The position numbers and the translations under genes are program-made. A stretch of DNA of 30,330 nucleotides, taken from the IMG/VR virus record IMGVR_UViG_3300002068_000001; one strand, given 5' to 3'. The notes below the pieces were generated by a model. The model ran no database searches, had not been told where the DNA came from, and was given only the letters and a program-made list of their open reading frames with translations. Shown here one piece after another: positions 1 through 26,172 of this stretch. This stretch comes from an uncultured virus (IMG/VR IMGVR_UViG_3300002068_000001) (Duplodnaviria; Heunggongvirae; Uroviricota; Caudoviricetes; Crassvirales). The first letter of the stretch is position 1. Every line of letters begins with the position of its first letter.

Positions 1-1439
1 TCAAAGAGAGGTAATTGTTTCTTGTTAGCACAGTATACATAAGTAGTTTTTGATTTCAAAATACCATTGGTAAAATTGTATTCAGTATCATCTTGATCTA
101 AGATAAGTCCCATTGTACCAGAGAATTGTAAATTCAAATTCTTTTCATATTTAATGAATTTCTTATCATTTGTGTCAAAATAAACTTGAGGACTGTAGCA
201 ATAAACGGTTTCTGGGAATCCATCTAAGTAATCTTCAACCTTTTTATAACCAAATTTTTCACACAATGCAACTATGATTTCAAAACATGTTTTATTGTAT
301 ACCAATACTCCATCAAAGAACCAGAAGTCTTTAACACCAGCTTTAAAAGTAGTTGGGATGTAACCATATTCAGTTAATTCATATGTACCATGTGCTTTTT
401 TACCACTAATGTAGTAGAAACCATCGATAAATATGAGTCTACCAGGGACATTATAAGAAGGTATTGCAAATGTTGAACATATAAATGTAGATGAAGCAGC
501 TCCTGAACTATAATTTGCAGGGGGATTGACTTGACGAATAGGAATCATTGGATTGGTTCTGAAATCTCTCTCATATACACTGTAGTTATAAACAGCAGGT
601 CCAGACTGATGTCTTTTAGTTCTATCCATAAATGTACGAGATTTGATTACACCAGCTTTGATATGATATAAGAAATTACATTTGACAGTTTTTACACCAC
701 CATTTATAGATTCACCATATCGCGTAGTATCCAAGAATTGTGCAATTGAAGAAAACCAAATACCTCTATCTTCAACAGAGAAGTAAAGAGGTCTTTCTTC
801 AGTAGTTTCCTTAGAGTAATGAAATTGAAGAGATTCTCCTTTAAACATATAGACATCAGGATTCTCTCTATTCTTTCTGTAATCAATCATTACAAATGCA
901 CCAGCTCCTTCATATTCAGTCAATACTTCAAATCCTTTGAAATAAATGATATAAGCCATAATTTGACTATCTGTGAATGTGTCAGGAGTATCTTTTAAAT
1001 ACTTTTTAGCTAATTCTTTATGATTTAAAAGAGTACCATTATGAATTAAAACAAATTCAGTTTCACCAGTTTCTTTGTTTCTAATTACAACAGGTTGAGC
1101 GGTAGTTACTCCTACTGCACCAACAGATGCTTTTCTACAATGACCTAAAGCTACTTTAGCTACTTTAGTTTTTTCCAATAATTCACTGGTGTCATAGAAA
1201 GCTGCAAACAATTTCTCTTTATCAACTCCATACTCTACTTCTCCATCAATGAATACACCACAAGAGTCTCCCCCTCTAACGTCATTAATGCAACCAAGTG
1301 TGTAGAAAGTCTTTTTATCAAACTTCCTTGCTATACCAACATACCCAAATAGACCACAATACAAACTGTTTGATTTGGGTTTGAGGAATAGAAAGAGAAT
1401 GGTGTGAACAAGTAAAAAACTTAAAATTATATTTAACAT
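1..1439 (-). CDS. Class II (Ntn-hydrolase) glutamine amidotransferase with long C-terminal extension; runs off the window edge
   Basis: Not in ORF track (no stop within window). Manual translation from ATG 1437-1439: MLNIILSFLLVHTILFLFLKPKSNSLY-CGLFG...RGGDSCG...LGHCRKAS...AQP...HNGTLLN...TDSQ...ERPLY, the canonical GATase-II motifs; frame stays open to base 1. Confidence 0.88.
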   Translation of the reverse strand, partial: MLNIILSFLLVHTILFLFLKPKSNSLYCGLFGYVGIARKFDKKTFYTLGCINDVRGGDSCGVFIDGEVEYGVDKEKLFAAFYDTSELLEKTKVAKVALGHCRKASVGAVGVTTAQPVVIRNKETGETEFVLIHNGTLLNHKELAKKYLKDTPDTFTDSQIMAYIIYFKGFEVLTEYEGAGAFVMIDYRKNRENPDVYMFKGESLQFHYSKETTEERPLYFSVEDRGIWFSSIAQFLDTTRYGESINGGVKTVKCNFLYHIKAGVIKSRTFMDRTKRHQSGPAVYNYSVYERDFRTNPMIPIRQVNPPANYSSGAASSTFICSTFAIPSYNVPGRLIFIDGFYYISGKKAHGTYELTEYGYIPTTFKAGVKDFWFFDGVLVYNKTCFEIIVALCEKFGYKKVEDYLDGFPETVYCYSPQVYFDTNDKKFIKYEKNLNLQFSGTMGLILDQDDTEYNFTNGILKSKTTYVYCANKKQLPLF

Positions 1440-1491
1440 TTATTTTATCTATTTTTAATTAAAAACTCAAAGAATAATTTTAAATTCTCTG

Positions 1492-2364
1492 TTATTCTCC
1501 TATGAGAGCGATTTGATACTTTTTAACAATTCTTTTTGCTGATGCTACATTACCATTGTTGATACTGTTGAATACAGTTTCTTCAGATGGTAAATAATTC
1601 TCAATTGCAAAAGGTTTTGTATTGAAATTACTCGAATACTCACGGAGACACTTGTTGTAGTAAGCAATTGCTGCTGCGGTTTGATGAAGAACCCAAGTAG
1701 TAGTGATTTCATCTTTGATGAAGTAACCAGAGAGGACTCTGTATTCAACCCCATAGTTAGTTAAGCGAAAACAACCAGCTTTACCATAGAGAGAACGTCT
1801 CCTTGTGTCAGGATCAATTAGAACTGAAGGTACACCGAGATACAAATCCAATACTTTTAGCAAAGCTAAAGAGGTCGTTAGATTGTTCTCATGGTATCCT
1901 ACATGAATGTGGACACCTGTACTCCTCAAGTTAATTTTAGCCCCTTCAGGAGCCTCATTTTGACTCAAGGTATATACATTGTAGTCGGGGTCACAACCAA
2001 ACTGTTTAGCTTCATCACTAAGTAACTGGTCATCTGGAACTAATTCAGATGCACTACACAGGATATCGTAATCAGGATTGACCTGTTTTACAAAATTCCT
2101 AATATACTCCTTCATTTGAGTAATTTGAGTTGAAAACAATTTACTTGCTCCTGAGACCAAATGAACTGGGGGAACATTAAATTCAGCCAACACATTGTCA
2201 GTTTGCAATCCAAATCCTTTTGAGAATCCTTCAGGCAAGAATGCATCGTTTTTATGTCCTGGAATAAGACCAATTGAAGATACAACTGTATTAGTTTTTG
2301 TATTTACAATAAATAATTCAGGATCTGTGCCAATTGTTACAATATCTATAATAGTATTAGCCAT
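1492..2364 (-). CDS. phiEco32-like COOH-NH2 ligase type 2 (glutamine synthetase-like fold)
   Basis: Motifs TIGTDPELF, QTDNVLAEFN, FGCDPDYN, LRSTGVHIHVGY, RRSLYGKAGCFR, GVEYRVLS. Confidence 0.88.
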   Translation of the reverse strand: MANTIIDIVTIGTDPELFIVNTKTNTVVSSIGLIPGHKNDAFLPEGFSKGFGLQTDNVLAEFNVPPVHLVSGASKLFSTQITQMKEYIRNFVKQVNPDYDILCSASELVPDDQLLSDEAKQFGCDPDYNVYTLSQNEAPEGAKINLRSTGVHIHVGYHENNLTTSLALLKVLDLYLGVPSVLIDPDTRRRSLYGKAGCFRLTNYGVEYRVLSGYFIKDEITTTWVLHQTAAAIAYYNKCLREYSSNFNTKPFAIENYLPSEETVFNSINNGNVASAKRIVKKYQIALIGE

Positions 2365-2993
2365 TATTTATTTAATTTAGAGATTATTAATGAATTAACG
2401 TAATTAACAAAAGGAGAATTGGTATCCATTATTTCAGGATGTCCTTGAATACCAAGAGAATTTGTTTCTGGGAAATAGATTACCTCTACTTCTTCAAAAA
2501 CATCATCCCAATGAATTCCTCCACCTTCGTAGTATCTAGACAATTTGGGTTCAGCAACAGCTAAAATCTCATATTTGTCTATAGGAAGATTGTATGGATA
2601 AGCCATTTGGTGATGACATGAACTTGTATAAAGAGTTTGTCCATCTGTGGTTAATACAGTGTGAGTTCTACCAGCATGATTAGTGACATCTTGAACCAAT
2701 TTGCCCCCGTTTAGAATGGTAAGCAATTGATTGCCACGGCAAATTCCAACTCGCAGAGTACCAGGTAGTTGAAGAGATTTGACATATTCCTCAATTTCAT
2801 AAGCGTCTCTTTTAGGACTACAATAAGTGGTTGGGTGAGTTCTTTCACCATAGAGATTGGGATCTACATCTTCACCTCCGGTAAATAGGATTACATCAGC
2901 TTGATTCATTTCTTCTACTAAAACAGCATCATGAATGAATCGAGCGTAGTGTCTAGATGTACCTACTACATATACTTTAATCGGTTTGTCCAT
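2364..2993 (-). CDS. Class I glutamine amidotransferase / peptidase C26 (gamma-glutamyl hydrolase-like)
   Basis: FTGGEDVDPNLY, nucleophile GICRG, HHQ, GIQGHPE catalytic His/Glu. Confidence 0.9.
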   Translation of the reverse strand: MDKPIKVYVVGTSRHYARFIHDAVLVEEMNQADVILFTGGEDVDPNLYGERTHPTTYCSPKRDAYEIEEYVKSLQLPGTLRVGICRGNQLLTILNGGKLVQDVTNHAGRTHTVLTTDGQTLYTSSCHHQMAYPYNLPIDKYEILAVAEPKLSRYYEGGGIHWDDVFEEVEVIYFPETNSLGIQGHPEIMDTNSPFVNYVNSLIISKLNK

Positions 2994-3750
2994 TAAATAA
3001 TAATTTATAATTGTGATTGTGATAATTTTCTACTCTTTCCATTATATCTTCAGTAGACATTTTTAATTGTTTTGAACTATCAAGAAAAAACTCATTTGGT
3101 GCATTTTTTTTAAAACCGATTCTAATGATCTTTGATGTATTAAATTCAAAGAAATTATTTATACAACCATAATTAGTGTCAACAAGTCTTGCTTTTAATT
3201 CTTCAAAACTTTTAATCAAAAGAGGACTAGGTATACCAGTAAAGAAACAATGACCATAATTGAGTGGAAAAGTTATCATTGATTGAACCAAATGATATGT
3301 ATAAATGATTGATAAATTTGGATAAACTTGAAGTTTAAATAGATTTATTGCTTCCTTCATACACACATTATAGGGTTGTTCATAACACAAACGAATTGCT
3401 GTTAACAATGCCTTAATTTTACCAAATAATTCATTGGTTTTAATAGCAACCTCAATTTGTTCCTTACCCATCACTAATGTGTAATCAAAATTAATCCATT
3501 GTTGAAGTTCTCTGAGATATAAATTCAGTTCTTCTTCGTCTAAGATACAGACATTTGAATTTTCACGAATAGTTGTATTACCAGGATAAAACATTGTAAC
3601 AGTTATTTCAACACCTTTTTTAGGATTGTATGAATTTACACATCCAAAAAAAGTCCTAAAACAAGCAGTATCCTCTGGAACAATTATTTCATCACTCCCA
3701 CCCAATTGAAATCTATAAATAGTATAATATCTTGATACATCAAAATTCAT
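2977..3750 (-). CDS. Hypothetical protein within amidoligase cluster
   Basis: 257-aa ORF overlapping both neighbours; no recognised motif. Confidence 0.75.
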   Translation of the reverse strand: MNFDVSRYYTIYRFQLGGSDEIIVPEDTACFRTFFGCVNSYNPKKGVEITVTMFYPGNTTIRENSNVCILDEEELNLYLRELQQWINFDYTLVMGKEQIEVAIKTNELFGKIKALLTAIRLCYEQPYNVCMKEAINLFKLQVYPNLSIIYTYHLVQSMITFPLNYGHCFFTGIPSPLLIKSFEELKARLVDTNYGCINNFFEFNTSKIIRIGFKKNAPNEFFLDSSKQLKMSTEDIMERVENYHNHNYKLLFNGQTD

Positions 3751-4507
3751 CCACTATTGCTTTTAGTTTGTCAATGTATTTAACTGCTGTCACATTCCCC
3801 ATCGAGGGGCCACTGTTGGTTTCGAGGATGATAAATCTTGCAGGATTATGATTACTGACTTTGATGTCAATTGCACTAATGTCCAATCCAACTGAAGTCA
3901 TAGCTTTTACACATTCGGCTACAATTTCATCCCAATTTGCTGGTTTAGCAAAGAGTTCATTCTCTTCAAGAATCCATACTGAATTGGTGTCATGACGATG
4001 CCAACGTTCAACTGCATCATCCTTGAGCATTTTTCTACAAGTGTAGAAGCAACCATCTTTTGTGACATGTAGACGATACTCTTTTACATAGTTGTAGAAT
4101 TTTTCAATGATGAAATCCTGTAGATTGTGATGTGCTGCAATAAATGCATCCAAATCAACTTGATTGTGAATGATAAATATACCTTCACCCTTGCTTGAAT
4201 TCTTATGCTTAATGATTGCATCAAAATGAGGCCAAGTTGCTAATTCGGGGGAATTCATTTGCAACCACTCTGCAGTAATTACTCCAGCAGCATCAAACAT
4301 TTGTTTCATGGTGATTTTATTACCACTATTGTGACAAGCTTGAACTGTGTTGATTTCAATAATTTCCTTACCAGTGCGAGCACCTACAGGAAAGATTTGA
4401 TCTGTGGGGGTATTGCTACCTAAGCGTAAGACACATCTTTTTCTAGTAACTACTTGACCTCTAAGAGAGGAAGCAGTATCATTTTTACTTCTTATTTGTA
4501 CAAACAT
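3740..4507 (-). CDS. ATP-grasp peptide/amide ligase (RimK/YheCD-like)
   Basis: NKITMK, IIKHKNSSKGEGIF, IEKF, EYRLHV, GLDISAIDI, ILETNSGP motifs. Confidence 0.85.
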   Translation of the reverse strand: MFVQIRSKNDTASSLRGQVVTRKRCVLRLGSNTPTDQIFPVGARTGKEIIEINTVQACHNSGNKITMKQMFDAAGVITAEWLQMNSPELATWPHFDAIIKHKNSSKGEGIFIIHNQVDLDAFIAAHHNLQDFIIEKFYNYVKEYRLHVTKDGCFYTCRKMLKDDAVERWHRHDTNSVWILEENELFAKPANWDEIVAECVKAMTSVGLDISAIDIKVSNHNPARFIILETNSGPSMGNVTAVKYIDKLKAIVDEF

Positions 4508-4524
4508 TTTTTCTAATTATTAAA

Positions 4525-4890
4525 TTATTCCCAATTACCAGATTCCATAGGTGTATAAAACCTTGTTTCCCTTTCTTTCATGGTATAGATTGTTACATCC
4601 ATTACTCCATGTTCAGTAGAGGATTCAATTTGAATTGTGCTTTTTTGATAAAGCGAGGGGTATCCTTCGTATCTATCCAATTGAAGCAAGATTGCATCAT
4701 CATTGACATGATACACTTCAAAAGTAATCCCATGTTCCTCTTCAGATGCAATCAATGCAGGAAAAGATCCTAAATTGAACATTTGAAATGGGATCGATAC
4801 TCTAAATGTTCCTACTAGAGGACTGTTTGCTAACATTCCATTAGCTCTTTGACCCCTTTTAAGGGTTCCATAAACTCCAATATATGCCAT
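4525..4890 (-). CDS. Gamma-glutamylcyclotransferase, AIG2-like
   Basis: Likely start ATG 4888-4890 (MAYIGVYGTLKRG); LGSFPAL, EVY, LDRYEGYP..Y motifs. Confidence 0.88.
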   Translation of the reverse strand: MAYIGVYGTLKRGQRANGMLANSPLVGTFRVSIPFQMFNLGSFPALIASEEEHGITFEVYHVNDDAILLQLDRYEGYPSLYQKSTIQIESSTEHGVMDVTIYTMKERETRFYTPMESGNWE

Positions 4891-4891
4891 T

Positions 4892-5392
4892 TTATTTGTT
4901 TTGTTCCCAACTTTGAGTGGGAAGGGTTTGTATTGCAATCAAATCTTTAAGTTTTTTACCAGCAAGTGATACAATGTCTAAAAAAGACAAAGCATCAATT
5001 CCATAAATGTCAAACATTCTATAACTCTTATCAAAGATGAGGCTACTACTTCTGTCTGTGTTTTCAAAATTACCAAATACTACTTTTTCTACATCTGTGT
5101 TGTAAAATGTACTTACTCTTGAATTACCGTAATCCTCACATAATTTGATTAGGATTTTTGCAACATCTTCTAATGTTACATTTGAGAATCTAGCTCTCGT
5201 AAGGTAATATAAGTCAAAGAAACTTCTAAAACAACCAGCATGACAATGCATTGAGCCGCCTTGAAATTTAGTGGATGGTTGACGATTAGCGAAGTAATAT
5301 TTGAGATATTTTTCAGGGGTGTCGTAGGTAGAATCTGTAGTGAACGGTCTAAGTTCTCTTAATTCTTCAAATAAATCAAGTTGTTCTTCCAT
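4892..5392 (-). CDS. Hypothetical protein
   Basis: 166-aa ORF abutting the GGCT gene. Confidence 0.7.
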   Translation of the reverse strand: MEEQLDLFEELRELRPFTTDSTYDTPEKYLKYYFANRQPSTKFQGGSMHCHAGCFRSFFDLYYLTRARFSNVTLEDVAKILIKLCEDYGNSRVSTFYNTDVEKVVFGNFENTDRSSSLIFDKSYRMFDIYGIDALSFLDIVSLAGKKLKDLIAIQTLPTQSWEQNK

Positions 5393-5412
5393 TATTAATA
5401 ATCTAAATTTAT

Positions 5413-5443
5413 AAAGGGAGTGAGGAAATTAATCCCCACACCC
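5413..5443 (-). terminator. Putative intrinsic terminator
   Basis: Minus strand GGGTGTGGGGA-loop-TCCTCACTCCC followed by TTTAT, just downstream of 5457..5696. Confidence 0.55.
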
Positions 5444-5456
5444 ATTTTTGTTTTGT

Positions 5457-5696
5457 TTAATTCAAATTGTTTTTGACAAATGAAAAGATCTTCTGTCCTA
5501 AGTCTTTTGAGGAGACTGTGGGATAGCTAGCAAAATCATTCAATGCAGCAGGATAGTCTTCACGAAGCTTCCTTACAATTGGATAGATTTCATTCATACG
5601 ATTCAAGTCACTGAAATGATTGGTAGATAGATTGTTAAATTCTGGGTATCTACGACCCAATGTGGAGAACATGCTTGTTTTAGCCATGATTGTCAA
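5457..5696 (-). CDS. Small hypothetical protein (likely start ATG ~5687, MAKTSMF)
   Basis: ORF overlapping the primase stop, followed by a terminator-like hairpin. Confidence 0.65.
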   Translation of the reverse strand: MTIMAKTSMFSTLGRRYPEFNNLSTNHFSDLNRMNEIYPIVRKLREDYPAALNDFASYPTVSSKDLGQKIFSFVKNNLN

Positions 5697-6687
5697 CGAT
5701 TTGTTTTATTACTTGATTAATTGTTTTTCTTCCATACATTTTGCATAGGTCACTAGGGTCTTTAGCCTTTAGTCCTATAGGTAAATGTAATTGTGTAAGT
5801 CCATATTTCTCTGACATCTTAGCACCAAGGTTTTCACCCCAGTTTTCTTTTTTGTCAAAGTCATTATCATATAGAATGTACACATTGTTAAACCTGTTTT
5901 TAAGCTCTTCTACAACTTGAATTTTTGGAAGTGCCGTTTCTGCCTGAAGACTACAAGCGGGTAGGCCTGTATTCTCCCAAATGCATAGAGCATCTTTTCT
6001 AGAAGAGGTAATGATAAGAGTTTCGCCAGTTTCAGGCAATTGTTGCCATAAATCCCATACAGATGAATCATGTTTATTTGTCCATTTGCGGGTCTGACTA
6101 AAAGGTTGATAAATTTTTAAAGATTCTATTTCATCCTTAAATTCTACATATACATATGCATACTTTTCAGCAGCAAACGTGTATCTTTGATTGGTATCAA
6201 GATTGTGAATGATTGTATGAGAGATGGGATACACATTACCAAATTGTAACCAAGGCAATGAGATACCAAATTCTTCCCAAAACTTTAAATCATAATCTCT
6301 CCATTCTCTTGTTTTACACTTTAGTTCAGTATTGTTGTTGTAACTAACTTTTCCCTTTGTTCTATGTGGGATTACAAATGAACCATTTTGAGTGTATCCA
6401 GGAGACATATCATTATAAATCTTCTCTAATAGATCATCAAAAGGAATCTGGAAGTACTTCATGAGTAAATCAAAAGTACCCCCAGATTCTTGAGTTGAAA
6501 AATCTTTAAAATGCAGTTTTATCCCATTGGTGGTGTTAATACCAAATGAGGGATTGTTGTCTACTCTAAGAGGAGAATTTATAAGACATGGTATTTCATT
6601 GATACCTAAATAGAAATTAAGAATATCTATTTCAGGAATAGCAAATACTTTGTCTACATTTGAGTTATTTCTCCCTTGTGCAAACAT
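5680..6687 (-). CDS. DNA primase (Toprim, crAss-like)
   Basis: N-terminal SPLRVDNNPSF...FKDFS..GG.FD region; Toprim LIITSSRKDAL, ILYDND, KDPSD. Confidence 0.85.
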   Translation of the reverse strand: MFAQGRNNSNVDKVFAIPEIDILNFYLGINEIPCLINSPLRVDNNPSFGINTTNGIKLHFKDFSTQESGGTFDLLMKYFQIPFDDLLEKIYNDMSPGYTQNGSFVIPHRTKGKVSYNNNTELKCKTREWRDYDLKFWEEFGISLPWLQFGNVYPISHTIIHNLDTNQRYTFAAEKYAYVYVEFKDEIESLKIYQPFSQTRKWTNKHDSSVWDLWQQLPETGETLIITSSRKDALCIWENTGLPACSLQAETALPKIQVVEELKNRFNNVYILYDNDFDKKENWGENLGAKMSEKYGLTQLHLPIGLKAKDPSDLCKMYGRKTINQVIKQIVDNHG

Positions 6688-6694
6688 TTATTAC

Positions 6695-7582
6695 TTACTT
6701 AAACCAATCTTCAATAGGGGTAGCAGTAGGTGCTTCTCCTGGAGTATTAGTAAATGCAGTAGCTTCTACAGTGTATTCCTTTAGAGGAGCACTAGAGAAG
6801 ACCGTTTTAGGATATGCTCCAGCAGCTTGAGATTTAACAATATCAGCATCAATAGGTGAGTTATTATTAGCATTACCACGAATAAATTTTCTAGTGTATG
6901 CATCTTGATATTCCTTACCATCATCTGTGGATTTAATCCCAAATGCTACTTTAATGGTGTTATCTTTTTTTAAAGCAATCAGATCAACTAATTCTTTAAC
7001 ATTTCCAGAGAAATATTTTTGAATATCTTCTAATTGAGCTTCTGCAGTAGCCAAATCTTCAACTACATGTTCTTTACCGTTTGCATCTGTATAAGATCTG
7101 GTAGGAATCCATAAAAACGTTTTCATAAATTGATTCAAATTGTCTTCACCATCCATACAAGGACGATAAGGACCAACAAACCATTTATTAGTTTCTGGAA
7201 GTTCACCTTTTTTGGCAAGGGATTCTTCAATCCAAGTAGATTCACCATATTTATTGATTACTTGAATGGTTCCTTTAGAGCTAAGACGGATTGCTTTCTT
7301 TAAAAAGAAACTTACTTTACTAATTGCTTCAATTCCATTGTTCTTCTCAGGAACTGTTTTGAGGATAATATCTATTCTAATTTGATCTTGACCTTCTGGA
7401 GATTTACCCAAGTATTCGGGGTCTTTTTCAGGAGCAGAACCATAAATTTGTTCTATTTGTGCTTTTGTAGGATTGACTGCAACTACGTTACAAACTCCTA
7501 CTCCGATGTATTTCTTAAATCCACCTGTCTCTACGGTAGTATCTTGGCCACTACCGAATGCCATCAACGCAACTTTACTCAT
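6695..7582 (-). CDS. Putative single-stranded DNA-binding / replication protein
   Basis: Between AAA ATPase and primase; low-complexity tail ending acidic-aromatic (PIEDWFK). Start probably ATG 7580-7582. SSB function is inference. Confidence 0.5.
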   Translation of the reverse strand: MSKVALMAFGSGQDTTVETGGFKKYIGVGVCNVVAVNPTKAQIEQIYGSAPEKDPEYLGKSPEGQDQIRIDIILKTVPEKNNGIEAISKVSFFLKKAIRLSSKGTIQVINKYGESTWIEESLAKKGELPETNKWFVGPYRPCMDGEDNLNQFMKTFLWIPTRSYTDANGKEHVVEDLATAEAQLEDIQKYFSGNVKELVDLIALKKDNTIKVAFGIKSTDDGKEYQDAYTRKFIRGNANNNSPIDADIVKSQAAGAYPKTVFSSAPLKEYTVEATAFTNTPGEAPTATPIEDWFK

Positions 7583-7598
7583 CTTTTCTTTGTTTAAA

Positions 7599-8276
7599 TT
7601 ATTCTTCATAATACGATTTCATAGCTTTAATGACTATATCCAAATCATTTGGCATTTTAGCCTCAAACATATCCTCTGGTGATTTAGCAGGTATTTCTAC
7701 CCCATCAATCAGAGTTTTTTGAGTATAAAATTGAAAGATTGGATTGTCATTCTTGTCAAATGTAGGTTTACAGTATAAGCAAATTGGGACTACTTCAATA
7801 GGATTGTAGTGATCTTCTACTAATTTACCTACTAATTTGACCTTTTTGCTAACAATGATTTTGTCATTGACTACATCATCATCATGCATCATTAGTACTA
7901 CTACGAGATCTTCTCTAGCATTCTCTGCTGATTCAATGATAGCTTGAAAGTGTTGACCAAGTTCGGTGAATTTAGCATAACCTACTTCTTTAGCTCGTTT
8001 CATAAACTCCTTCTCCATCACAAATCGTATGTCATCGATTATGACTTGTTTTATATGAGGCATACCATTTACGACTCCTATAAAATTCACTATTTTGTCC
8101 CAATCAGATATGGAGACAATGTTCTTTTTCTCTGTAGAGTATAAAGCTCTAGAACCCCTAAAGGGTAAATCCTTTTTGAGAACATTAATGATTAATGTTT
8201 CGTCAGGATTTAAATTCTTAATACTTCTACTCTTTCCAGACCCAGTAGGGCCTAACACAATTAAAATTCTACCCAT
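7599..8276 (-). CDS. AAA_24 / Sak4-like P-loop ATPase
   Basis: Walker A GPTGSGKS, Walker B VIIDD, C-terminal AKSPEDMF...PNDL. Confidence 0.8.
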   Translation of the reverse strand: MGRILIVLGPTGSGKSRSIKNLNPDETLIINVLKKDLPFRGSRALYSTEKKNIVSISDWDKIVNFIGVVNGMPHIKQVIIDDIRFVMEKEFMKRAKEVGYAKFTELGQHFQAIIESAENAREDLVVVLMMHDDDVVNDKIIVSKKVKLVGKLVEDHYNPIEVVPICLYCKPTFDKNDNPIFQFYTQKTLIDGVEIPAKSPEDMFEAKMPNDLDIVIKAMKSYYEE

Positions 8277-8564
8277 TTATTTATTTTTATGGCGATGTGC
8301 CATCATGAATATTTTACTACTTCGGACTCGTTCAGCAAACGTTAAAGATTGCTCAATTTTATCCCTTTCATTAGGAAGTGGTAATTCTCTAAAATAATTA
8401 ACTCCTCCATCAAAAAAGAGAGGACAAACTGTTCCCCCACCACCACCTCTACTTGCTATTAATTCCATGAATCTTATATTATCCTTAAATTCAGTTATGT
8501 CATATCCTAAATATTTAGGAATTTCATATCTGAATGGACTGTATAGACCAATTATGAAATTTGC
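8277..8564 (-). CDS. dnaB: Replicative DnaB-type helicase, exon 2 (95 aa)
   Basis: ANFIIGLYSPFRY...IASRGGG...LFFDG continues the DnaB H3/H4 motifs in frame with exon 1 after intron removal. Confidence 0.88.
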   Translation of the reverse strand, partial: ANFIIGLYSPFRYEIPKYLGYDITEFKDNIRFMELIASRGGGGGTVCPLFFDGGVNYFRELPLPNERDKIEQSLTFAERVRSSKIFMMAHRHKNK

Positions 8565-8799
8565 CAATTTGTTATCTTAATGGCTCTTTATCCATTAATT
8601 CTGCAATTTCTTCTATATTTGCAGTTCAGACTATATCTTCACATTTCTGTGTTGGGATTTCGTGTTAGGATTATATTCTATATTCCTATAGTTTCACCTA
8701 TTAGTCGTTCGACCTTCTATAATCATTTAAATCATAGTTTGGTACGGGATGGTCTTTTTCAAGAGTTTCCCCGTTTAACCCAATTAAGAGACACATTTA

Positions 8800-9693
8800 T
8801 TAAATTTTTGTTAAACCAATTTTGTAATACATTGTTTCATGTAAATAAGGAAAGATGATGCTTATAAATTTCTTTAAATCTTTTGTTGAAAGATATATCA
8901 CATTGTTTTTTTGAATATTAAAATGTAAATTAAATTCATGTTTCAAAAAATCAATAAAAATCTATAATTCTTCTTTTGTAAAACAATTCGTGCATATACT
9001 TATAGATGTGCTAGATTTTTGACCATCATCCATAAACATGTATGCTAATGAAACAGCAGTAAAATCTTTAAATAATAAAGGATTAATAATCTTTTTTCCA
9101 GTAGAATATAACATATCATATAGATCAAGATAATAAGGATTATTTACACTCTATATTAAATAATCTTCATAATATATTCCATTCCTTTGATCTGGAGTTA
9201 ATCTCTTTTCATACTTAAATTTCATACCTAAAGATTCTAATTCTAAAAATTTAGAATAACAGTAATCTTTCTATTTTAATCCATGTGCACATTTGAAACC
9301 AGGGTTAATACTTTCTTTTCGTAAGGAAGAATCTCCTAATAATGTACCTATTAATATTTCTCTTTGATGTTGAGTTGCTTCTACTAATTTGGAAATAGCA
9401 AAGGATGGACGAGAAATATTGTTTCTCATCCTAGCACCATAAACACCATCAGAGGAAACACGAAACTGTTTTGCAATTTCATTATCATCATATCCTTGTT
9501 CAACTAATTGTTTTAATACGTTTACATCAATTTTACGAGTATTAGAATAATCAAAATTTACAGGTAAATTATGTTTTATTCTCCATTGTCGTACTGTTTC
9601 TGTACATGCTTTTATTTCTCTTGCTATTTCAGCATCATTTTTTCTCTAATCATATAATTGAGATATGATTATTTCTCTTTCTATTTTTTCCAT
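8800..9693 (-). CDS. Intron-encoded HTH + LAGLIDADG homing endonuclease (297 aa if TAG is read as sense)
   Basis: ATG 9691-9693 to TAA 8800-8802; two HTH-like repeats (NDAEIAREI..., DDNEIAKQF...), ILIGTLLGDSSL, SLAYMFMDDG, ICTNCFT, PYLHETMYYK; in-frame TAG at 9646-48, 9271-73, 9151-53, 8962-64. Confidence 0.88.
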
Positions 9694-9716
9694 ATTTTTA
9701 ATATTTTAAATATAGG

Positions 9717-9748
9717 CAAAGGTAAGAAAACATATTGTGAATAACAAT
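9717..9748 (-). promoter_or_regulatory. Bacteroidota housekeeping-sigma promoter upstream of homing endonuclease
   Basis: Minus strand ATTG-N20-TACCTTTG matches the -33 (T)TTG / -7 TAnnTTTG consensus, 23 nt upstream of the HEG ATG. Confidence 0.65.
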
Positions 9749-9788
9749 AGGTTAATTGGTTTATTTAATTTTAATAAATTTTTTATTT

Positions 9789-10658
9789 ATCTCTTCCTGG
9801 CAGTTTCGATTCTGCCAAGCCATCGAGAGTTGGTTTGATTTTATTCAATTTGAAATTATCAATACCTTCTTGTGCAGCACTTTGTTGGTGCACTAATACA
9901 GGAATTTGATTATACCTATTCCTTAACATTATATAATACTCAGATGATAATTTGTCAATAGCCTGTTTTACATTGTTGTTGCCTTCTGGAGACAACAAAC
10001 TAGCATGATCGGTTATACAAATTACATATTCATCGGGATCATTTGGCACATAATAGTCAAAAACACTATGTTGTGTGATTTCTCCAGTATGATTATCTGT
10101 AATATTAATAAGTTTTCTCTGAGATACACCATGTGAATCTGCATAATCCTTCATGTGTTTAAAAATACCAAAAGGATTACGAATATCTTCAATTATTTCT
10201 ACTGTTTCTTCAAAAAAATCAAAATAAGTTTGATATTCTTCAGTATCCATTAATTTTAATATCTCTTCAGATAGAGGCCTCTCTTTAGATGTACTTTTTA
10301 AATCTTTAGGAGTGATTCTAATTTTTCCTTTAGAGGTTATGAATAAAAGATGGCAAATAAATTGATTATATTTTTCTTCAAAAGACATTTCTAAAGAGAA
10401 ATATTTTATTTTTATTCTTAATTCTTCCCTATGATTGAATGCATAGAAAAAAGGAGAATACATAAACATTTTATCTGTTAACTGTGTCTTACCAATTTTG
10501 CTATTTGCTGTAACAATATAATATTTACCTTGTTCAATTCCTGGAAGTTCTTCTTCAAATCTGGGAAATCCAAAAGGCACACAATTAACTAAACCACTTT
10601 CTATTCGTTCTTTTCTTACTATTAAATTATTTCTAATTCTTTTAAATGATTCTGTCAT
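9789..10658 (-). CDS. dnaB: Replicative DnaB-type helicase, exon 1 (290 aa)
   Basis: Walker A ANSKIGKT, YFSLEMS, Walker B CITDH, VLVHQQ, DGLAESKLPGRD; spliced product 385 aa. Confidence 0.9.
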
Positions 10659-10660
10659 TC

Positions 10661-11272
10661 TTATTTGAGAGTTACTGTCCAGTCACCATTGGCGGGTTTA
10701 ACCTCATCTTCACTGTAGTTTTCAATATAAGATAATAAGGCTGATTCTTGTGAACCATCTGTCTTATCCTTCCATATGAAGTACTTCAGAAGCTGCATAT
10801 AAGGGCTGTTAGAGTCTTGAAATGATTCTACATAGTTCTTAGTTGCTTCTAACATTTGTTCATTAGAAACGTCTCCATATCGCTTAAAGAAGATTTGAAG
10901 CTTCCTTATAATTTCAGGGGTATTCCCTCTCCAGTAGTAATTAGTTGTTTCTTTCTTTCCTTTTGGGAAGAGTTCTTGCATTTGTTTTGCAAGTTCTAAT
11001 AGATTATCTACTGGAGCTACAGTTTTATCTGAATCTAGTAATATATTTCTTATCATATCTGAACCCATATCCATAAGAGCAAAGCCATTTGATTCAAGTT
11101 TTTGTGTATCAAAATTGAATTTATACCTTTCTCTCAATAAACCCTTGGCTGCAAGGGCTTTCCTATCTACATTATGTGTGTCTACTTTTAAATATATTGG
11201 TAATAGTACAAGGAACTCAGCTAATGTAAGTTCATTTTGTTCTATTAAGACATCATTAATGGATAAGGTCAT
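10661..11272 (-). CDS. Hypothetical replication-module protein (possible initiator/helicase-associated)
   Basis: Likely start ATG 11270-11272 (MTLSIND) just after the upstream stop; directly upstream of dnaB. Function is positional inference. Confidence 0.6.
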   Translation of the reverse strand: MTLSINDVLIEQNELTLAEFLVLLPIYLKVDTHNVDRKALAAKGLLRERYKFNFDTQKLESNGFALMDMGSDMIRNILLDSDKTVAPVDNLLELAKQMQELFPKGKKETTNYYWRGNTPEIIRKLQIFFKRYGDVSNEQMLEATKNYVESFQDSNSPYMQLLKYFIWKDKTDGSQESALLSYIENYSEDEVKPANGDWTVTLK

Positions 11273-11273
11273 A

Positions 11274-11585
11274 TTAGTCTTTAGATATGTATTTTTCTTC
11301 AGTTTGTGGTGAGGAAAGTAATAAAAATAGTTTTGCAGCGATTTTAATTCTTTCTTTTTTGGGTCGAGTAGAAATATCTCCAATAAATTTAATCTTAGCA
11401 GGTGGAGACAATTCTTCATCGTTGAGTGCAGCAATTTGTACTACTGCTTGAAGTTTTTCTTCAGCAGAGTTAGAGTTATAACCATTTGCAATCACAGTTG
11501 CTACCTTATCTCCCAATTTTACAATTGCGTAAGGCTTAATATAATCAGTTCTTTCAACATCACCAGGATTTCTATCCATAATCAT
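11274..11585 (-). CDS. Hypothetical protein
   Basis: 103-aa ORF packed between neighbours. Confidence 0.7.
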   Translation of the reverse strand: MIMDRNPGDVERTDYIKPYAIVKLGDKVATVIANGYNSNSAEEKLQAVVQIAALNDEELSPPAKIKFIGDISTRPKKERIKIAAKLFLLLSSPQTEEKYISKD

Positions 11586-11591
11586 CAGTTT

Positions 11592-12809
11592 TTATATTGT
11601 TAATTTATCAATGTTGTCTACGGTGCGAATATGTTCTATACTTATCTCTTTTAGTACATTATCAAGATAGTCTTCGTCTCTTGTATTCTTGAAGTATAAG
11701 ATTATAATTATAGGTTCTTCTGAACGCATAATTCTACCACTTTTTTGAATAAAAGGACCAACTTGTCCATCTAATTGCACTACTACTCCAATTTCAATTT
11801 TAGTAAGATTGTTACCTTCTTGTATCATATCTACTACAAACAGATTACTAATTTCTTCTTCATTAAAGGAGTCAATTATTTCTTGACTATTCTTTACTTC
11901 TGAACAAATTAAATTCTTATCTGCTGATAAGATTCTTGCTTGTTTGATACTACCACAAAAACATACAAATCGTTTGTCTTGTAATTTAAGTAATATTTGT
12001 TGAACATAAGATGTTTTTATATCCGCTAAATATCTTTTACGCTCACTTCCAGAAAGCAACCATTTATTTTTATCCATTATATTCCTATTTACAAAATATC
12101 TATTTTTGTAATAAGAGTATTGTTGGGTTAAATATTGTTCTTTTTGAAATTGAGTGCACCTTATAACTAGGTGTAAATGAGGATATTGGGCTTTATCAGA
12201 CATATATTTGAATCTATCCTTGAATTCACAATATACTTTTGTTCGTCTCTTCTCTAATCCTCTAGTGAATTCAATATATTCAGATTGAACATTATTTAAT
12301 TCTAGTGGAATGAGGTAAAATGTGGGTTGTGGTACTACGTCATTTTCTATAGCTTCTTTTAATGGGATTTTATATTTATAAAATTCTCCTTTGATAGATT
12401 CAATCTCATAGATTTGGCTATCTTTAATTGTAGCAGATAATAGGATTAGGTTAGTGTATCTTATAGAAGATAAATAATCTAATCGTAAATCTGAAGTAAT
12501 ATGATGTCCTTCATCAAGACAAATCATATCTACTTGAGTGTTAACATACTTTTTTAAAGAGGCATAACAAAAGAATATTACATTGTTTAGTAGATACTCT
12601 TTGTTATGCTTCTTGTATTCATCAATCCAATTCTTTTTATGATTTCTTTCAGCAATTACAATGTATACACTTTTAGGTTGAAGTGCTTCTTGTATTTGAA
12701 TAAAACTGAGTGTTTTACCTGTTCCAGTTACATGTTTGAGAAGAAGATTAGGATATAACTTAGCTAATTCTACAGAGGTGTTTTGTATAATAGTTTTAGT
12801 TAATTTTAT
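11592..12809 (-). CDS. Superfamily 2 DExH helicase
   Basis: Track ORF starts at motif II (LDEGH), but the frame is open upstream and includes Walker A TGTGKT (12711-12728); LSAT, EG.N, QKSGRIMR. No ATG/GTG/TTG upstream of Walker A; start placed tentatively at ATA 12807-12809. Confidence 0.8.
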   Translation of the reverse strand: MKLTKTIIQNTSVELAKLYPNLLLKHVTGTGKTLSFIQIQEALQPKSVYIVIAERNHKKNWIDEYKKHNKEYLLNNVIFFCYASLKKYVNTQVDMICLDEGHHITSDLRLDYLSSIRYTNLILLSATIKDSQIYEIESIKGEFYKYKIPLKEAIENDVVPQPTFYLIPLELNNVQSEYIEFTRGLEKRRTKVYCEFKDRFKYMSDKAQYPHLHLVIRCTQFQKEQYLTQQYSYYKNRYFVNRNIMDKNKWLLSGSERKRYLADIKTSYVQQILLKLQDKRFVCFCGSIKQARILSADKNLICSEVKNSQEIIDSFNEEEISNLFVVDMIQEGNNLTKIEIGVVVQLDGQVGPFIQKSGRIMRSEEPIIIILYFKNTRDEDYLDNVLKEISIEHIRTVDNIDKLTI

Positions 12810-13003
12810 TTGCGGGAATTTTTGAATTGAGTTAATTGTTGCTTGAGTTTTTGTTCAAACTTTAATAAATTAATCTCATCTGTGTTTAAAACTGGTTCTG
12901 CTGCAACAGTTGACCTGATTGCTAACATAACTACTTTAGTAGNTTTAGTACTATATGATAACTTATAATGCGTTATCCGACATCTTCTTCTTCCAAGTTC
13001 CAT
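12806..13003 (-). CDS. Small hypothetical protein
   Basis: 65-aa ORF filling the gap; contains an ambiguous base (n, 12943). Confidence 0.5.
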   Translation of the reverse strand: MELGRRRCRITHYKLSYSTKXTKVVMLAIRSTVAAEPVLNTDEINLLKFEQKLKQQLTQFKNSRK

Positions 13004-13398
13004 TCATTCAATTGTTTAAGTGTGATTGTTAAACTACTTTCAGGATCAATATCATAATAATTATCTACAGCTTCAACACAACTATTGAATACGACTTCAC
13101 GTAATTCAGTAACAGTAATGTCTTTTCTGCACATATTCCAAATACCTGGTTCTAGATCTGCATCACTACTAATCATACAAGCACCTTCATCAATATTTAC
13201 ATGATAACCCACTCCTTGTAGATAGCAAATAACTACAAATAACCAATCAAAAGATTTATCAAACCTTAAAAATGGAACTTTATCTACTTCTGTATAGATA
13301 TCTTTACATATTAAGCCCTCTTGTTCAAGGACTTTAACACCTAAGAATCTACCTAGTTTAAGATTTCCTTCATCAATCTTCTTCGATGGTACATACAT
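12973..13398 (-). CDS. Hypothetical protein, paralog family B
   Basis: GNLKLGRFLG...FDKSFDWLFVVI...VFNSCVEAV; similar to 13373..13807 and 17864..18298. Confidence 0.7.
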   Translation of the reverse strand: MYVPSKKIDEGNLKLGRFLGVKVLEQEGLICKDIYTEVDKVPFLRFDKSFDWLFVVICYLQGVGYHVNIDEGACMISSDADLEPGIWNMCRKDITVTELREVVFNSCVEAVDNYYDIDPESSLTITLKQLNEWNLEEEDVG

Positions 13399-13807
13399 GT
13401 TTTAATAGATTATCATTATAATAAATAATAAATTCAGCACAGGAATTCCACATAGACTGTAGCTTAGTGGAGAACCAAAAAGTTGAAACAACGGTTTTAC
13501 CTTCTTTATAGAATTGTAATCTGTATCCTTGACGAGGCACATAAGACAATTCTGAACCGTATCCTTGTTCTTCAATAAATTCAATCATAAGAATAAGCCA
13601 AGCAATATCATAACAAAATTGCATTTCTTTTTTGTTGTAATATGCTAATTCTTCTCCTGTAGATGTTTCAATATTTCTAGCACTAATAGGAGCATAATAT
13701 GTACAATCATATGAATCTCCTGTAATACCACAAACATTTTTACCTATCCACTCAATTTGAAGGAATTCAACGAAGAGGTCAGTGGCTTTTTCTTTAGATA
13801 TATCCAT
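13373..13807 (-). CDS. Hypothetical protein, paralog family B
   Basis: FCYDIAWLILMIEFIE...MWNSCAEFIIYYN. Confidence 0.7.
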   Translation of the reverse strand: MDISKEKATDLFVEFLQIEWIGKNVCGITGDSYDCTYYAPISARNIETSTGEELAYYNKKEMQFCYDIAWLILMIEFIEEQGYGSELSYVPRQGYRLQFYKEGKTVVSTFWFSTKLQSMWNSCAEFIIYYNDNLLKHVCTIEED

Positions 13808-18712: not shown

Positions 18713-18898
18713 TTAAAGCATTTCTTCAAGTTCGTCTGCAACTAATTGATAGTAGTCTTTGATGTATTGATAAGGATCAGCTTTGAGTACTTCTTTTACA
18801 ACAAACATTGCACTCATTACTGCTGCATCACCATCACAATAAATTTCAAATTTGTTAATCAATTCATTCGCTTTTTCTAAAGGAGTTTGTTTTGGCAT
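18713..18898 (-). CDS. Small hypothetical phage protein
   Basis: Likely start ATG 18896-18898 (MPKQTPLEKANELINKF). Confidence 0.6.
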   Translation of the reverse strand: MPKQTPLEKANELINKFEIYCDGDAAVMSAMFVVKEVLKADPYQYIKDYYQLVADELEEML

Positions 18899-19114
18899 AA
18901 GAGTTTTATTAAGAGTTAATAAATAAACCACTAATACTACTAATCCAAATTGATTAATAGTACTAGTAGTTTCTATGTTATGGCTATTCATGCTTTTTCC
19001 AAGAGCACGAACCTATTACAAATAACTTTCCTTGGCGACAATCTAACACTTCTAAGTAATTAGTTTCTCTATACTGTGTTAGTATTTGCATTCGGTGAAT
19101 AGCCTATGAGTTTA

Positions 19115-19152
19115 AAAAGAGACTCCAACTTGTTTCACAACACGATGGAGTG
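19115..19152 (-). terminator. Putative terminator with GNRA-capped hairpin
   Basis: Minus strand ACTCCA-TCG-TGTT(GTGA)AACA-AGT-TGGAGT-CTCTTTTT downstream of 19189 stop. Confidence 0.5.
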
Positions 19153-19188
19153 TGGCGATATTAAAATCGCAGTGCAAGAAAATGTGAT

Positions 19189-19539
19189 TTATCCTACCTG
19201 AGTGTAAGAGAATGTGTGGGGGTGTGCAATACGGGCAAAATGCTGATTCAGCTTTTCATCGTCTGTGAGTGAATCCCATTGTTTGTTGTGATTCCATTTG
19301 GATTTGTACCATTCTGGAACTTGATTGGATAGCATGTAATCAACTGCCGTTTCTGAAATGGTAGTTTTCTTACTGGCAACAGAGTTAGTTCGTTGAAAAT
19401 GCTGTTTGTCGTAGTGTTTGGTGATTTTTTGACCACCTACTTCTTTTACTTCAGTAACATTGATAGTTACTTCTTCTTTCACTTGTGAAAGGACACCTTC
19501 TGCGAATACAGTCAGGAGAATTGCGCTGTTGTTTGACAT
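19189..19539 (-). CDS. Hypothetical protein
   Basis: Likely start ATG 19537-19539 (MSNNSAILL). Confidence 0.7.
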   Translation of the reverse strand: MSNNSAILLTVFAEGVLSQVKEEVTINVTEVKEVGGQKITKHYDKQHFQRTNSVASKKTTISETAVDYMLSNQVPEWYKSKWNHNKQWDSLTDDEKLNQHFARIAHPHTFSYTQVG

Positions 19540-19986
19540 ATTTAGCACCTTTCCATTACTGGTTAAGGTCAAGCTTAGCACTCATTTGTGTGGGTTGAAA
19601 GTATTACCTCGTTTGTTAAGGGTTGCTTCGACTTGCTAAAGGTCGCCACACAGACTATCTTTCAATTTAGTACCTACCCCATTTGCTGGGCCGTCATTTA
19701 TTAGAGTTGGATTAACCGCATCCTCATAAATAATTTTATCTTTACCTGTACTAACCTCTTCATAATTTTTGGAAACCCAATAATTACTTATAGAAATCAT
19801 CTTTTATTCGGGATCGATGTTCAGCCCGTTAATATATTATTCAATTTCAAACGTTTTCCCAGTCTACTTTAATTGTTAGTTCGGAATGATGCCTTGTTAA
19901 GATTCACATAAATGCTTCACTGTGAAGGAGATGACCGACGCTCGTATTTAAAGCTTGCCTATTGGATTGAATAATCGATTAATAAA

Positions 19987-25151: not shown

Positions 25152-25390
25152 ATTTAATAAATTTAAAAAATCAATTTCAGTCCTTGCATGAGAATTAATT
25201 TGGTATAAAGAGATACATTTCGCCAGTCATGTGAATCCATAGGAAGCCAATATACTATTCTGTAGGTTTATACTTACTTTTAAATTTAACAAACACAACC
25301 AATGCCTTGGTCTATATCTAACATTTGTTCCTTGCACGCAAGTGTCATTCTAAATATTTGTCTGCTTCAATCTGAAATTGATTTTATTAT

Positions 25391-25534
25391 TTACAAGTTT
25401 TGTTGAATGAATTCTTTAAGAAGTTTTGGTCCAAATATTTTATCAGCTTTGTACATATTACCAGCAAGTTTAAAAAGCAAGTGTTCAACTTCTTCTCTTG
25501 ACCAAGATTCTTTTACTTTTTTAACGTCAGACAT
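25391..25534 (-). CDS. Small hypothetical protein (47 aa)
   Basis: Below track cutoff; MSDVKKVKESWSREEVEHLL...FIQQNL*. Confidence 0.6.
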   Translation of the reverse strand: MSDVKKVKESWSREEVEHLLFKLAGNMYKADKIFGPKLLKEFIQQNL

Positions 25535-25556
25535 AGCTGTTTGTTTTAAGTGTTAA

Positions 25557-25742
25557 TTAACGAATATTTTTATATTTTACACGTGCATCTTTTAAAGACA
25601 TTATTTCTTTATATTTTGCTGGATAACCTTCTTCAATTAAACAACCATATGCGCTATTTAATGGATAAAATAAAGTGCCATTTGTATATGAGAATATATA
25701 TCCTAATTCTCCTTCTCCTATAGGTAAATGTTTATGTGACAT
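25557..25742 (-). CDS. Small hypothetical protein
   Basis: 61-aa ATG ORF on the coding strand. Confidence 0.5.
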   Translation of the reverse strand: MSHKHLPIGEGELGYIFSYTNGTLFYPLNSAYGCLIEEGYPAKYKEIMSLKDARVKYKNIR

Positions 25743-26172
25743 ATAATTTATTTTAAATAAGGTTGATTAATATACTACTACTCTTAAAATATTGAAGCAT
25801 ACACGATGAAGTGTATTCACCTAAAGCATCACTACATATGCCAATGCTTAACTCCATGAGCTTATATAATAATATGGTTTTAAAGGGAGTCACACAGCGT
25901 TCTCAACACACTCGACTAGCCAAATTCTTCGCTAGATATGTGACATGTTTAAAATTACTGACTGACTACAGTTTACACATTTTCATCAAAGTATGTATAA
26001 GTTGACCTTGCTCGTAGGATTTATATCTGAGGCATTTCACCTCTTTCAATCTGTAAAAGCGGAGATTGTGAATGTTCATCTAAGAACTTAGTTTAAGAAT
26101 AGGATAGTTGCTACAATTAATATAATAACAAGTGTGTAGAGTAGGATGTGAATAAGTATGTATTTCAATAAC

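Follow-up and report, generated by a model that had tools for sequence, protein, structure and literature searches.

The 30,330-nucleotide (nt) stretch of DNA from the uncultured virus IMGVR_UViG_3300002068_000001, referred to below as the window, carries on its minus strand a DnaB-like helicase gene that is interrupted by an insert, and within this insert lies a homing endonuclease gene with four in-frame TAG codons. The best explanation of our results, and one that we consider likely, is that the window comes from a recoded crAss-like phage whose endonuclease resides in a group-I-like intron of the helicase and would be made at full length only after the phage's own transfer RNA with anticodon CUA (tRNA-CUA) has become available. 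The endonuclease is written in the dialect of the late genes, unlike the helicase exons and the 48 neighbouring open reading frames (ORFs). Five points are direct observations and are presented in turn below: the reading frame, the genetic code, the gene for the tRNA, the place of insertion and the covariation of the insert RNA.

Results

An endonuclease frame broken only by TAG

The gene and its in-frame TAG codons are located as follows.

8800..9693, minus strand: homing endonuclease gene, 297 codons, ATG at 9693-9691 and TAA at 8802-8800; two weak N-terminal helix-turn-helix (HTH) modules, then an I-SceI-type LAGLIDADG_2 domain
9646..9648, minus strand: in-frame TAG, codon 16, inside the first HTH
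9271..9273, minus strand: in-frame TAG, codon 141, within H-G-x-K-Q-K-[DE]-Y
9151..9153, minus strand: in-frame TAG, codon 181, in a variable column
8962..8964, minus strand: in-frame TAG, codon 244, in a variable column

Translation of the minus strand confirmed the frame of 297 codons described in the initial annotation, with TAG at codons 16, 141, 181 and 244 as the only internal stops and with no TAA, TGA or frameshift. Because the probability that a random frame of this strand stays free of TAA and TGA over 297 codons is about 3e-11, we regard the frame as being under selection. When TAG was translated as glutamine (Gln), residues 111-276 matched the Pfam family LAGLIDADG_2 (PF03161) at 105.7 bits against a cut-off of 25 (E 3.2e-30), and the protein matched phrog_11023 of the PHROGs collection, 'homing endonuclease with LAGLIDADG motif', at E 2.4e-16. 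A profile of the endonuclease family matched, over positions 101-294, the chains of I-SceI (PDB 1r7m and related entries) at E about 1e-24. In an alignment of 29 sequences the residues G116, L118, L119, G120 and D121 of the first LAGLIDADG motif (LIGTLLGD) are invariant, as are M221, D222, D223 and G224 of the second (MFMDDG); the two motifs thus lie in one chain, each with a conserved acidic residue. The architecture proposed previously, two HTH modules followed by LAGLIDADG, stood with respect to the nuclease motifs, whereas the HTH pair in residues 1-95 was represented by weak Pfam matches under the cut-off. The protein is a functional-looking LAGLIDADG homing endonuclease of the I-SceI type, with an activity predicted from these features.

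The endonuclease shares its TAG usage with late genes and not with its neighbours

The 48 neighbouring ORFs on the minus strand of the window comprise 8,404 codons without a single in-frame TAG; 45 of them end in TAA and two in TGA, and one runs off the window. Among the minus strand ORFs of at least 80 amino acids (aa; n=45) there are 43 ending in TAA, two in TGA and none in TAG. The helicase exons are free of TAG as well, and reading TAG as a sense codon opened no further credible gene in the window. These counts bear out the earlier statement that TAG neither occurs within nor terminates the other genes of the window. Expressed per 1000 codons, TAG usage is 13.5 in the endonuclease, 18.5 in the late genes of the phage and 0 in the 48 neighbouring ORFs. 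The endonuclease consequently differs from its neighbours (4 TAG in 297 codons vs. 0 in 8,404; Fisher p=1.3e-6) and not from the late genes (Fisher p=0.67). The accompanying notion that the recoding is confined to one gene was an artefact of the window, which covers a TAG-free replication block of a phage with TAG-dense late genes elsewhere.

The phage and its genetic code

The neighbours of the endonuclease are replication genes of the crAss-like type (primase, Sak4-like ATPase, DnaB-like helicase and SNF2-type helicase), and the records nearest to the window are the Steigviridae phages cr111_1, PhiCrAssBcn14-18 and crAss001. Through a match to the endonuclease we reached an IMG/VR contig of 76,917 bp (G002; CheckV 78% complete), of which positions 63883-76917 correspond to window positions 1-13021 at 99.885% identity (a single mismatch and a single gap); the window extends 17 kb past the end of this contig. 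We found no tRNA gene within the 30,330 nt of the window. The contig carries two, one of which has the anticodon CUA (1484-1557; Infernal, 50 bits; also called by ARAGORN), so that the search for a suppressor tRNA proposed in the initial annotation had a positive outcome.

The same was true of the proposed comparison of coding density. Within the first 40 kb of G002 (1-40000), plus strand ORFs of at least 100 aa cover 17,085 nt under code 11, with 15 of 30 ending in TAG, and 33,129 nt with TAG as a sense codon. Between about 5.6 and 51.6 kb the plus strand genes are rich in in-frame TAG, with 48, 48 and 32 in the giant ORFs of 1965, 2353 and 1331 aa, respectively; altogether, 24 late ORFs contain 277 TAG among 14,968 codons, which amounts to 41% of all their Gln-like codons. 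In the minus strand block, which runs from 51.6 kb to the end of the contig and continues into the window, the endonuclease is the sole real bearer of TAG. Two apparent exceptions were rejected: one ORF has its two TAGs ahead of the probable start codon, and another ORF has an indel-shifted C-terminus. The window is the TAG-free replication block of a crAss-like phage with a code-15-like reassignment of TAG to Gln, nearest to Steigviridae records, and we call the phage recoded because the 99.9% identical contig carries both tRNA-CUA and TAG-dense late genes on the opposite strand. This accords with the description of crAss-like phages in Yutin et al. 2021 (PMC7886860) as having late genes recoded for TAG=Gln or TGA=Trp, suppressor tRNAs and abundant introns.

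Some details of G002 deserve mention. Over the shared 13 kb the one mismatch and a gap of 14 nt (window about 1467-1500) are the sole differences, and the ligase ORF of 290 aa in the window corresponds to one of 303 aa in G002 (65349-66260), which has two TAGs near its end; the 14-nt indel probably shifts the C-terminus of this ORF between the two assemblies. The tRNA-CUA gene is part of a unit (1028-1557) in a TAG-free leader that heads the plus strand block, in which the ORFs up to 5541 are without TAG, and it lies immediately 3' of a 130-aa ORF that is itself preceded by a host-type promoter-like motif (see below). Such a leader fits a code-switch unit expressed ahead of the TAG-bearing genes. 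A search for the release-factor family PF00472 gave no match in G002 or in the second recoded contig described below, both of which are fragmentary records.

TAG is probably read as glutamine

We aligned the endonuclease with 28 homologs (E <=1e-10, 33-62% identity) and inspected the columns of the four TAG codons against a background of 2.7% Gln. The initial annotation had pointed to codon 141 as a position where this family usually has Gln, and all 28 homologs do. At codon 16 Gln is the top residue (10 of 23, followed by Leu 6, Lys 4 and Glu 3; 5 gaps). A Gln-like tendency at all four sites, for which the initial annotation had proposed to look, did not emerge: at codon 181 Gln occurs in 1 of 28 homologs (Arg 9, Tyr 5, Glu 4) and at codon 244 in 0 of 28 (Thr 8, Asn 5, Lys 4). 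The ten Gln positions of the endonuclease that are encoded by CAA or CAG display the same mixture, one being invariant, some partly conserved and several not, and for this reason we consider the TAG sites to behave as ordinary Gln sites.

A second comparison was made with five late proteins aligned between G002 and the second recoded contig (G003), for which the Gln background is 2.6%. The residues in G003 facing 45 late TAGs of G002 are Gln 12, TAG 11, Glu 7, Lys 5, Asn 4 and others 6; conversely, the 62 late TAGs of G003 face Gln 13 times and TAG 11 times in G002. Since codon 141 falls on an invariant Gln, and since Gln or TAG faces 23 of the 45 late TAGs against 2.6% expected from the background, TAG appears to be read as Gln in this phage.

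A second recoded phage

Relatives of the endonuclease were surveyed at 80 IMG/VR loci, the loci with a single TAG or TGA being inspected in part. Truly recoded copies were found in the window's own phage and at one other locus (L026), which lies on the 71.5 kb contig G003 and whose copies are at most 42% identical to the endonuclease of the window. In-frame TAG occurs at 13 of the 80 loci; besides L003, seven were examined (L038 on behalf of L038, L039 and L046, and L085 on behalf of L085-88), and other than L026 they proved to have ordinary TAG stops or upstream extensions. Eleven loci with in-frame TGA, of which eight were examined, were likewise explained by ordinary stops or upstream extensions. 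A gain in coding under TAG-sense translation at L035, L040 and L043 merely reflects the fusion of adjoining ORFs and not recoding, and L004, which resembles a diverged copy that retains the TAG at codon 244, belongs to the phage of the window itself (99.987% identity over 7,478 nt with one gap) and is not independent.

G003 has the same organization as G002, with a tRNA-CUA beside tRNA-Gln(UUG), TAG-dense late genes on the plus strand and a TAG-free block on the minus strand. Its helicase contains two tandem LAGLIDADG genes with 7 and 9 TAGs, and an HNH endonuclease gene with 4 TAGs (phrog_3118, E 8e-20) lies between two DNA-polymerase fragments. These are the only multi-TAG ORFs in the early block of G003. 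Taking both phages together, 4 of the 4 genes in the early blocks that contain several internal TAGs encode homing endonucleases.

The early block of G003 is heavily invaded (6308-7764, 11036-13725 and 29027-32592): the helicase has two LAGLIDADG-bearing inserts, the DNA polymerase is split by the HNH gene, and a thymidylate synthase fragment adjoins another HNH gene. Furthermore, four of its early-block ORFs (12514-13725, 18842-19660, 32531-33088 and 33025-33738) have a TAG within the last few codons. These terminal TAGs may serve as stops in early infection, with read-through in the late phase adding a short extension at the C-terminus.

A structured, precisely placed insert in the helicase gene

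The interruption of the helicase comprises the following parts, with boundaries set by protein alignment to the uninterrupted helicase of cr111_1, which may be off by a few bases.

9789..10658, minus strand: DnaB-like helicase, upstream exon (ORF 9783-10658); homology to uninterrupted cr111_1 ends at D290
8277..8564, minus strand: DnaB-like helicase, downstream exon (ORF 8277-8567); homology resumes at ANFIIGLYSPF
8565..9788, minus strand: putative intron of 1,224 nt; the 5' exon ends in AGA GAT (U) and the insert in TTG (G)
9694..9788, minus strand: 5' non-coding part of the insert, 95 nt, upstream of the endonuclease ATG
8565..8799, minus strand: 3' non-coding part of the insert, 235 nt, structured RNA with 9 helices

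The cr111_1 helicase (298 aa) is contiguous over the insertion site, D290 lies two codons before the stop of the upstream ORF, and removal of the insert restores the residue count of the uninterrupted protein. A tblastn search with the two exon ends against 81 loci revealed 23 loci interrupted at the identical helicase residue, and two (L042 and L047) in which the helicase is interrupted at other positions. The layout is constant over 22 inserts: 64-100 nt upstream (21 of 22), the ORF, and then 144-328 nt downstream. The last base of the insert is G in 21 of 22 and the last base of the preceding exon is T in 17 of 18, which is the exon-U/insert-G splice junction of group I introns; the helicase insertion of the window has it too.

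The 3' non-coding parts of 17 inserts were aligned and folded with RNAalifold. The predicted structure contains 45 base pairs in 9 helices, with compensatory changes in 33 of the 45. Paired cells amount to 95.5%, compared with 73.5% in shuffled alignments and 29-44% when the pairing partners were slid, the covariation score is 0.574 vs. 0.165 in the controls, and none of 500 shuffles matched the observed values on any measure. An invariant long-range helix, GACUA/UAGUC, encloses other helices, and two covarying hairpins come after it. The region resembles P7-P9 of a group I intron, with GACUA/UAGUC as the putative P7, and the helices as a whole may correspond to P3-P9. Matches in Rfam to salivarius-1, snoR29 and PsrR1 (in the window or in 8500-9850) were weak, at chance level and to no intron family. 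Taken together, these features point to a group-I-like intron, structured and precisely inserted, rather than to a confirmed group I member, and its splicing is predicted from the comparisons above.

At an upstream site of the helicase region, cr111_1 (L001, 8053-8682) and PhiCrAssBcn14 (L002, 1337-1975) carry a GIY-YIG endonuclease, at a place where the window has no interruption. For mobile endonucleases of different kinds, the helicase gene seems to be an insertion hotspot.

A promoter-like motif ahead of the endonuclease

The 5' non-coding part of the insert contains one further element.

9717..9747, minus strand: bipartite motif TTG-N-TAnnTTTG, ending 23 nt upstream of the endonuclease ATG

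In the form TTG-N(18-22)-TAnnTTTG, ending 19-27 nt before the ATG, the motif is present in 14 of 18 related inserts (shuffle mean 0.04), and the TAnnTTTG box alone is found at this distance in 16 of 18 (shuffle mean 1.1). It matches the Bacteroidetes primary-sigma consensus as quoted in PMC7366714. Four copies of the strict motif are placed 18-25 nt ahead of the start of an ORF; three of these precede plus strand units, one being the ORF directly before tRNA-CUA, and the copy at the endonuclease is the only correctly placed one on the 43-kb minus strand block.

According to the account of phage phi14:2 in Drobysheva et al. (bioRxiv 10.1101/2020.03.07.982082), the replicative module forms an early class transcribed by an injected virion RNA polymerase, and the expression and capsid modules on the opposite strand are middle or late and transcribed by the host RNA polymerase. 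The layout around the window matches that of phi14:2, and by analogy its replication block would be of the early class. The host-type promoter-like motif, in combination with the polymerase classes of phi14:2, suggests that the endonuclease could be transcribed by the host polymerase as a middle/late-type unit apart from the early genes surrounding it.

Other features of the window

At one end of the window (3-5392) lies an amidoligase-type cluster, with glutamine-amidotransferase-like, COOH-NH2 ligase and glutamine amidotransferase genes, an ATP-grasp 'S6 glutaminyl transferase'-like gene and a gamma-glutamyl cyclotransferase gene. The cluster looks like a peptide-modification module. In the otherwise dense block there is a region of about 1 kb (25152-26172) without any minus strand ORF of at least 50 aa. 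It contains the salivarius-1 match (25887-25944), which is weak and sub-threshold (30 bits vs. a gathering score of 50, E 0.016). In phi14:2 the early block is described as having long, highly transcribed intergenic regions (bioRxiv 10.1101/2020.03.07.982082), and by comparison the region could be one of non-coding RNA.

Discussion

Our results favor a scenario in which the amber codons delay the endonuclease. Early in infection, with the standard reading of the host, its translation would end at UAG after 15 codons. As tRNA-CUA accumulates in the middle and late phases, read-through would give the 297-aa enzyme, which could then cleave helicase alleles without the intron in co-infecting relatives. 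Of the two alternatives offered in the initial annotation, the first, a code-15 phage in which TAG gates the nuclease to late infection, agrees with our results as far as the code is concerned (tRNA-CUA, TAG-dense late genes, TAG facing Gln), and the late gating is what we infer from them. The second, an imported and silent intron, did not survive, as the phage is recoded and has its own suppressor tRNA.

The scenario should be interpreted with some caution, and several observations weigh against it. Splicing, late timing, nuclease activity and a selective benefit are inferred from sequence, and the effect on timing presupposes a host that uses the standard code. Statements on the rest of the genome are taken from G002, a contig estimated to be 78% complete, and not from the window's own assembly. 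The identity of the inserted residue is not informed by codons 181 and 244, which lie in variable columns where Gln is rare (1/28 and 0/28), and tRNA-CUA is 64-65% identical to the tRNA-Gln of G003, about as it is to other tRNAs. No Rfam group I intron matched, either in the whole window at E <=0.1 or in 8500-9850 at E <=10; the ORF that splits the RNA may defeat the Rfam group I model. The strict promoter-like motif occurs genome-wide in 10 copies where 5.2 +/- 2.0 are expected by chance, a weak excess of about twofold, and its conservation among the inserts could also be explained by RNA structure or by shared descent. Finally, the early block of G003 also contains two HNH genes of another sort, one free of TAG and one whose single TAG lies 7 codons short of the end, so that only 4 of the 6 endonuclease genes of both phages are clearly recoded.

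The strongest competing explanation is that the TAGs are a by-product of recoding rather than a gate. TAGs would drift into all genes, be purged from those that are needed early and stay in the endonuclease, which is not needed early; the full-length protein would be a late product all the same, in the absence of any adaptive gating. We consider this a serious possibility that falls somewhat short of an even chance. It agrees with a TAG density in the endonuclease no higher than in the late genes (13.5 vs. 18.5 per 1000, p=0.67), with the two of six early-block endonuclease genes that escaped recoding (the G003 HNH genes), and with the location of three of the four TAG sites in variable or semi-variable columns. 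Three lines of evidence oppose it. First, one TAG comes very early, at codon 16, and another occupies an invariant Gln. Secondly, G003 has three more recoded endonuclease genes compared with about 35 unrecoded non-endonuclease early ORFs. Thirdly, preferential recoding of this kind of gene family is reported to be statistically supported in Agate phages (bioRxiv 10.1101/2021.08.26.457843). These points leave room for drift, and the TAGs may be either a selected gate or tolerated.

A more elaborate version of the gating scenario, which we put forward tentatively and think rather unlikely as a whole, involves two layers of control. The endonuclease would be restricted to the middle or late phase both by its own intron promoter of the host-sigma type and by its amber codons, and the essential early DnaB message would thereby be protected. 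The TAG at codon 16 would keep ribosomes off the ribozyme in the early helicase pre-mRNA and leave the splicing of the DnaB mRNA undisturbed until replication is under way. If true, code switching could be a general truce between crAss phages and their many introns, albeit an incomplete one, given that 2 of 6 endonuclease genes escape the rule.

It could also be hypothesized that no splicing occurs, and that a free-standing endonuclease gene separates two helicase halves which are translated individually, the downstream one from a TTG start at 8567. The lack of an Rfam intron match would be expected in that case, and the ORFs are compatible with it insofar as the upstream one stops 2 codons past the break in homology and a TTG start codon is found exactly where homology resumes. 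We nevertheless find this improbable, since a 235-nt non-coding stretch with a strongly covarying multi-helix structure has been kept in 17 sequences, the U...G junction rule holds (T in 17/18 exons, G in 21/22 inserts), and excision restores the residue count of cr111_1.

Two remaining explanations have, in our judgement, very little chance of being correct. Homing endonuclease genes often decay after fixation, and the frame is broken four times under code 11, as it would be if the TAGs were nonsense mutations in a dead gene; yet the four stops are TAG without exception, the frame contains neither a frameshift nor any TAA or TGA (P about 3e-11 in a random frame), the catalytic motifs are preserved, one TAG stands at an invariant Gln, the phage has tRNA-CUA and hundreds of sense TAGs in its late genes, and the endonuclease sequence is identical in three assemblies. 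A recent import of the intron from another recoded phage, with silence in the present one, would be compatible with the lack of TAG in the closest homologs (57-63% identity) and in the same-site introns of the relatives examined, from which it follows that the TAGs arose or arrived within a recoded lineage; however, the phage is itself recoded with its own suppressor, so that the endonuclease need not be silent, and no closer TAG-bearing donor was found among the 80 loci, the G003 copies being at most 42% identical.

The present case is a clean and replicated example from the Crassvirales of a selfish gene that is written in the late code inside an early-read gene, and it supports stop-codon reassignment as a translational timer. 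It also has practical consequences for annotation: under code 11 the endonuclease is fragmented or missed and the helicase is called as two genes, and the intron is invisible to Rfam.

Comparison with known systems places these results as follows. The nuclease domain resembles that of I-SceI (E about 1e-24), with both LAGLIDADG motifs in a single chain, but the protein has about 100 additional N-terminal residues holding two HTH-like modules; moreover, I-SceI is a mitochondrial, group I intron-encoded, monomeric enzyme, whereas the endonuclease described here is a phage-borne enzyme with a predicted activity. The endonucleases of the Bacteroides phages PhiCrAssBcn14-18 (OQ221549 and related) are 44% identical to it and are found at the same helicase residue within the same insert architecture; in contrast, they contain no TAG in frame, and their annotation under code 11 is that of an intact hypothetical protein of 291 aa. 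The genomes analysed by Yutin et al. (PMC7886860) are reported to share the suppressor tRNA, the mostly late recoding and, in core genes, frequent group I introns encoding endonucleases of the LAGLIDADG or other types. In the PolB gene of a Zeta-group genome described there, however, the reassigned codon occurs in intron ORFs and exons alike, and this description does not extend to a situation such as the present one, in which the exons are clean and only the ORF inside the intron is recoded. A full-text search of the literature, with supplements outside its scope, returned no description of this combination of TAG, DnaB and LAGLIDADG.

The closest precedent is provided by the TGA-recoded Agate phages, in which, according to Borges et al. 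(bioRxiv 10.1101/2021.08.26.457843), recoding preferentially affects the endonuclease of a group I intron that lies in an early gene; these authors proposed that in-frame stops should block production of the endonuclease until late. Both systems, as far as the Agate phages are described in that preprint, have an early-gene intron endonuclease that uses the reassigned stop and replication genes compatible with the standard code, and the pattern on which that proposal rests is also seen here, the endonuclease ORF being recoded and the early host gene and its neighbours not (p=1.3e-6). The gating logic has therefore been in print since 2021, and our results add little to it conceptually. They differ in the particulars, with TGA=Trp in the Agate phages and, here, TAG=Gln in the Crassvirales, DnaB as the host gene and a LAGLIDADG enzyme of the I-SceI type. 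Here, moreover, the ORF has a conserved promoter-like motif of the host type ahead of it, and a related phage, G003, has two endonuclease genes that are not recoded. What the present analysis contributes beyond the Agate system is a covariation-supported intron missed by Rfam, a conserved promoter-like element and a count of the exceptions.

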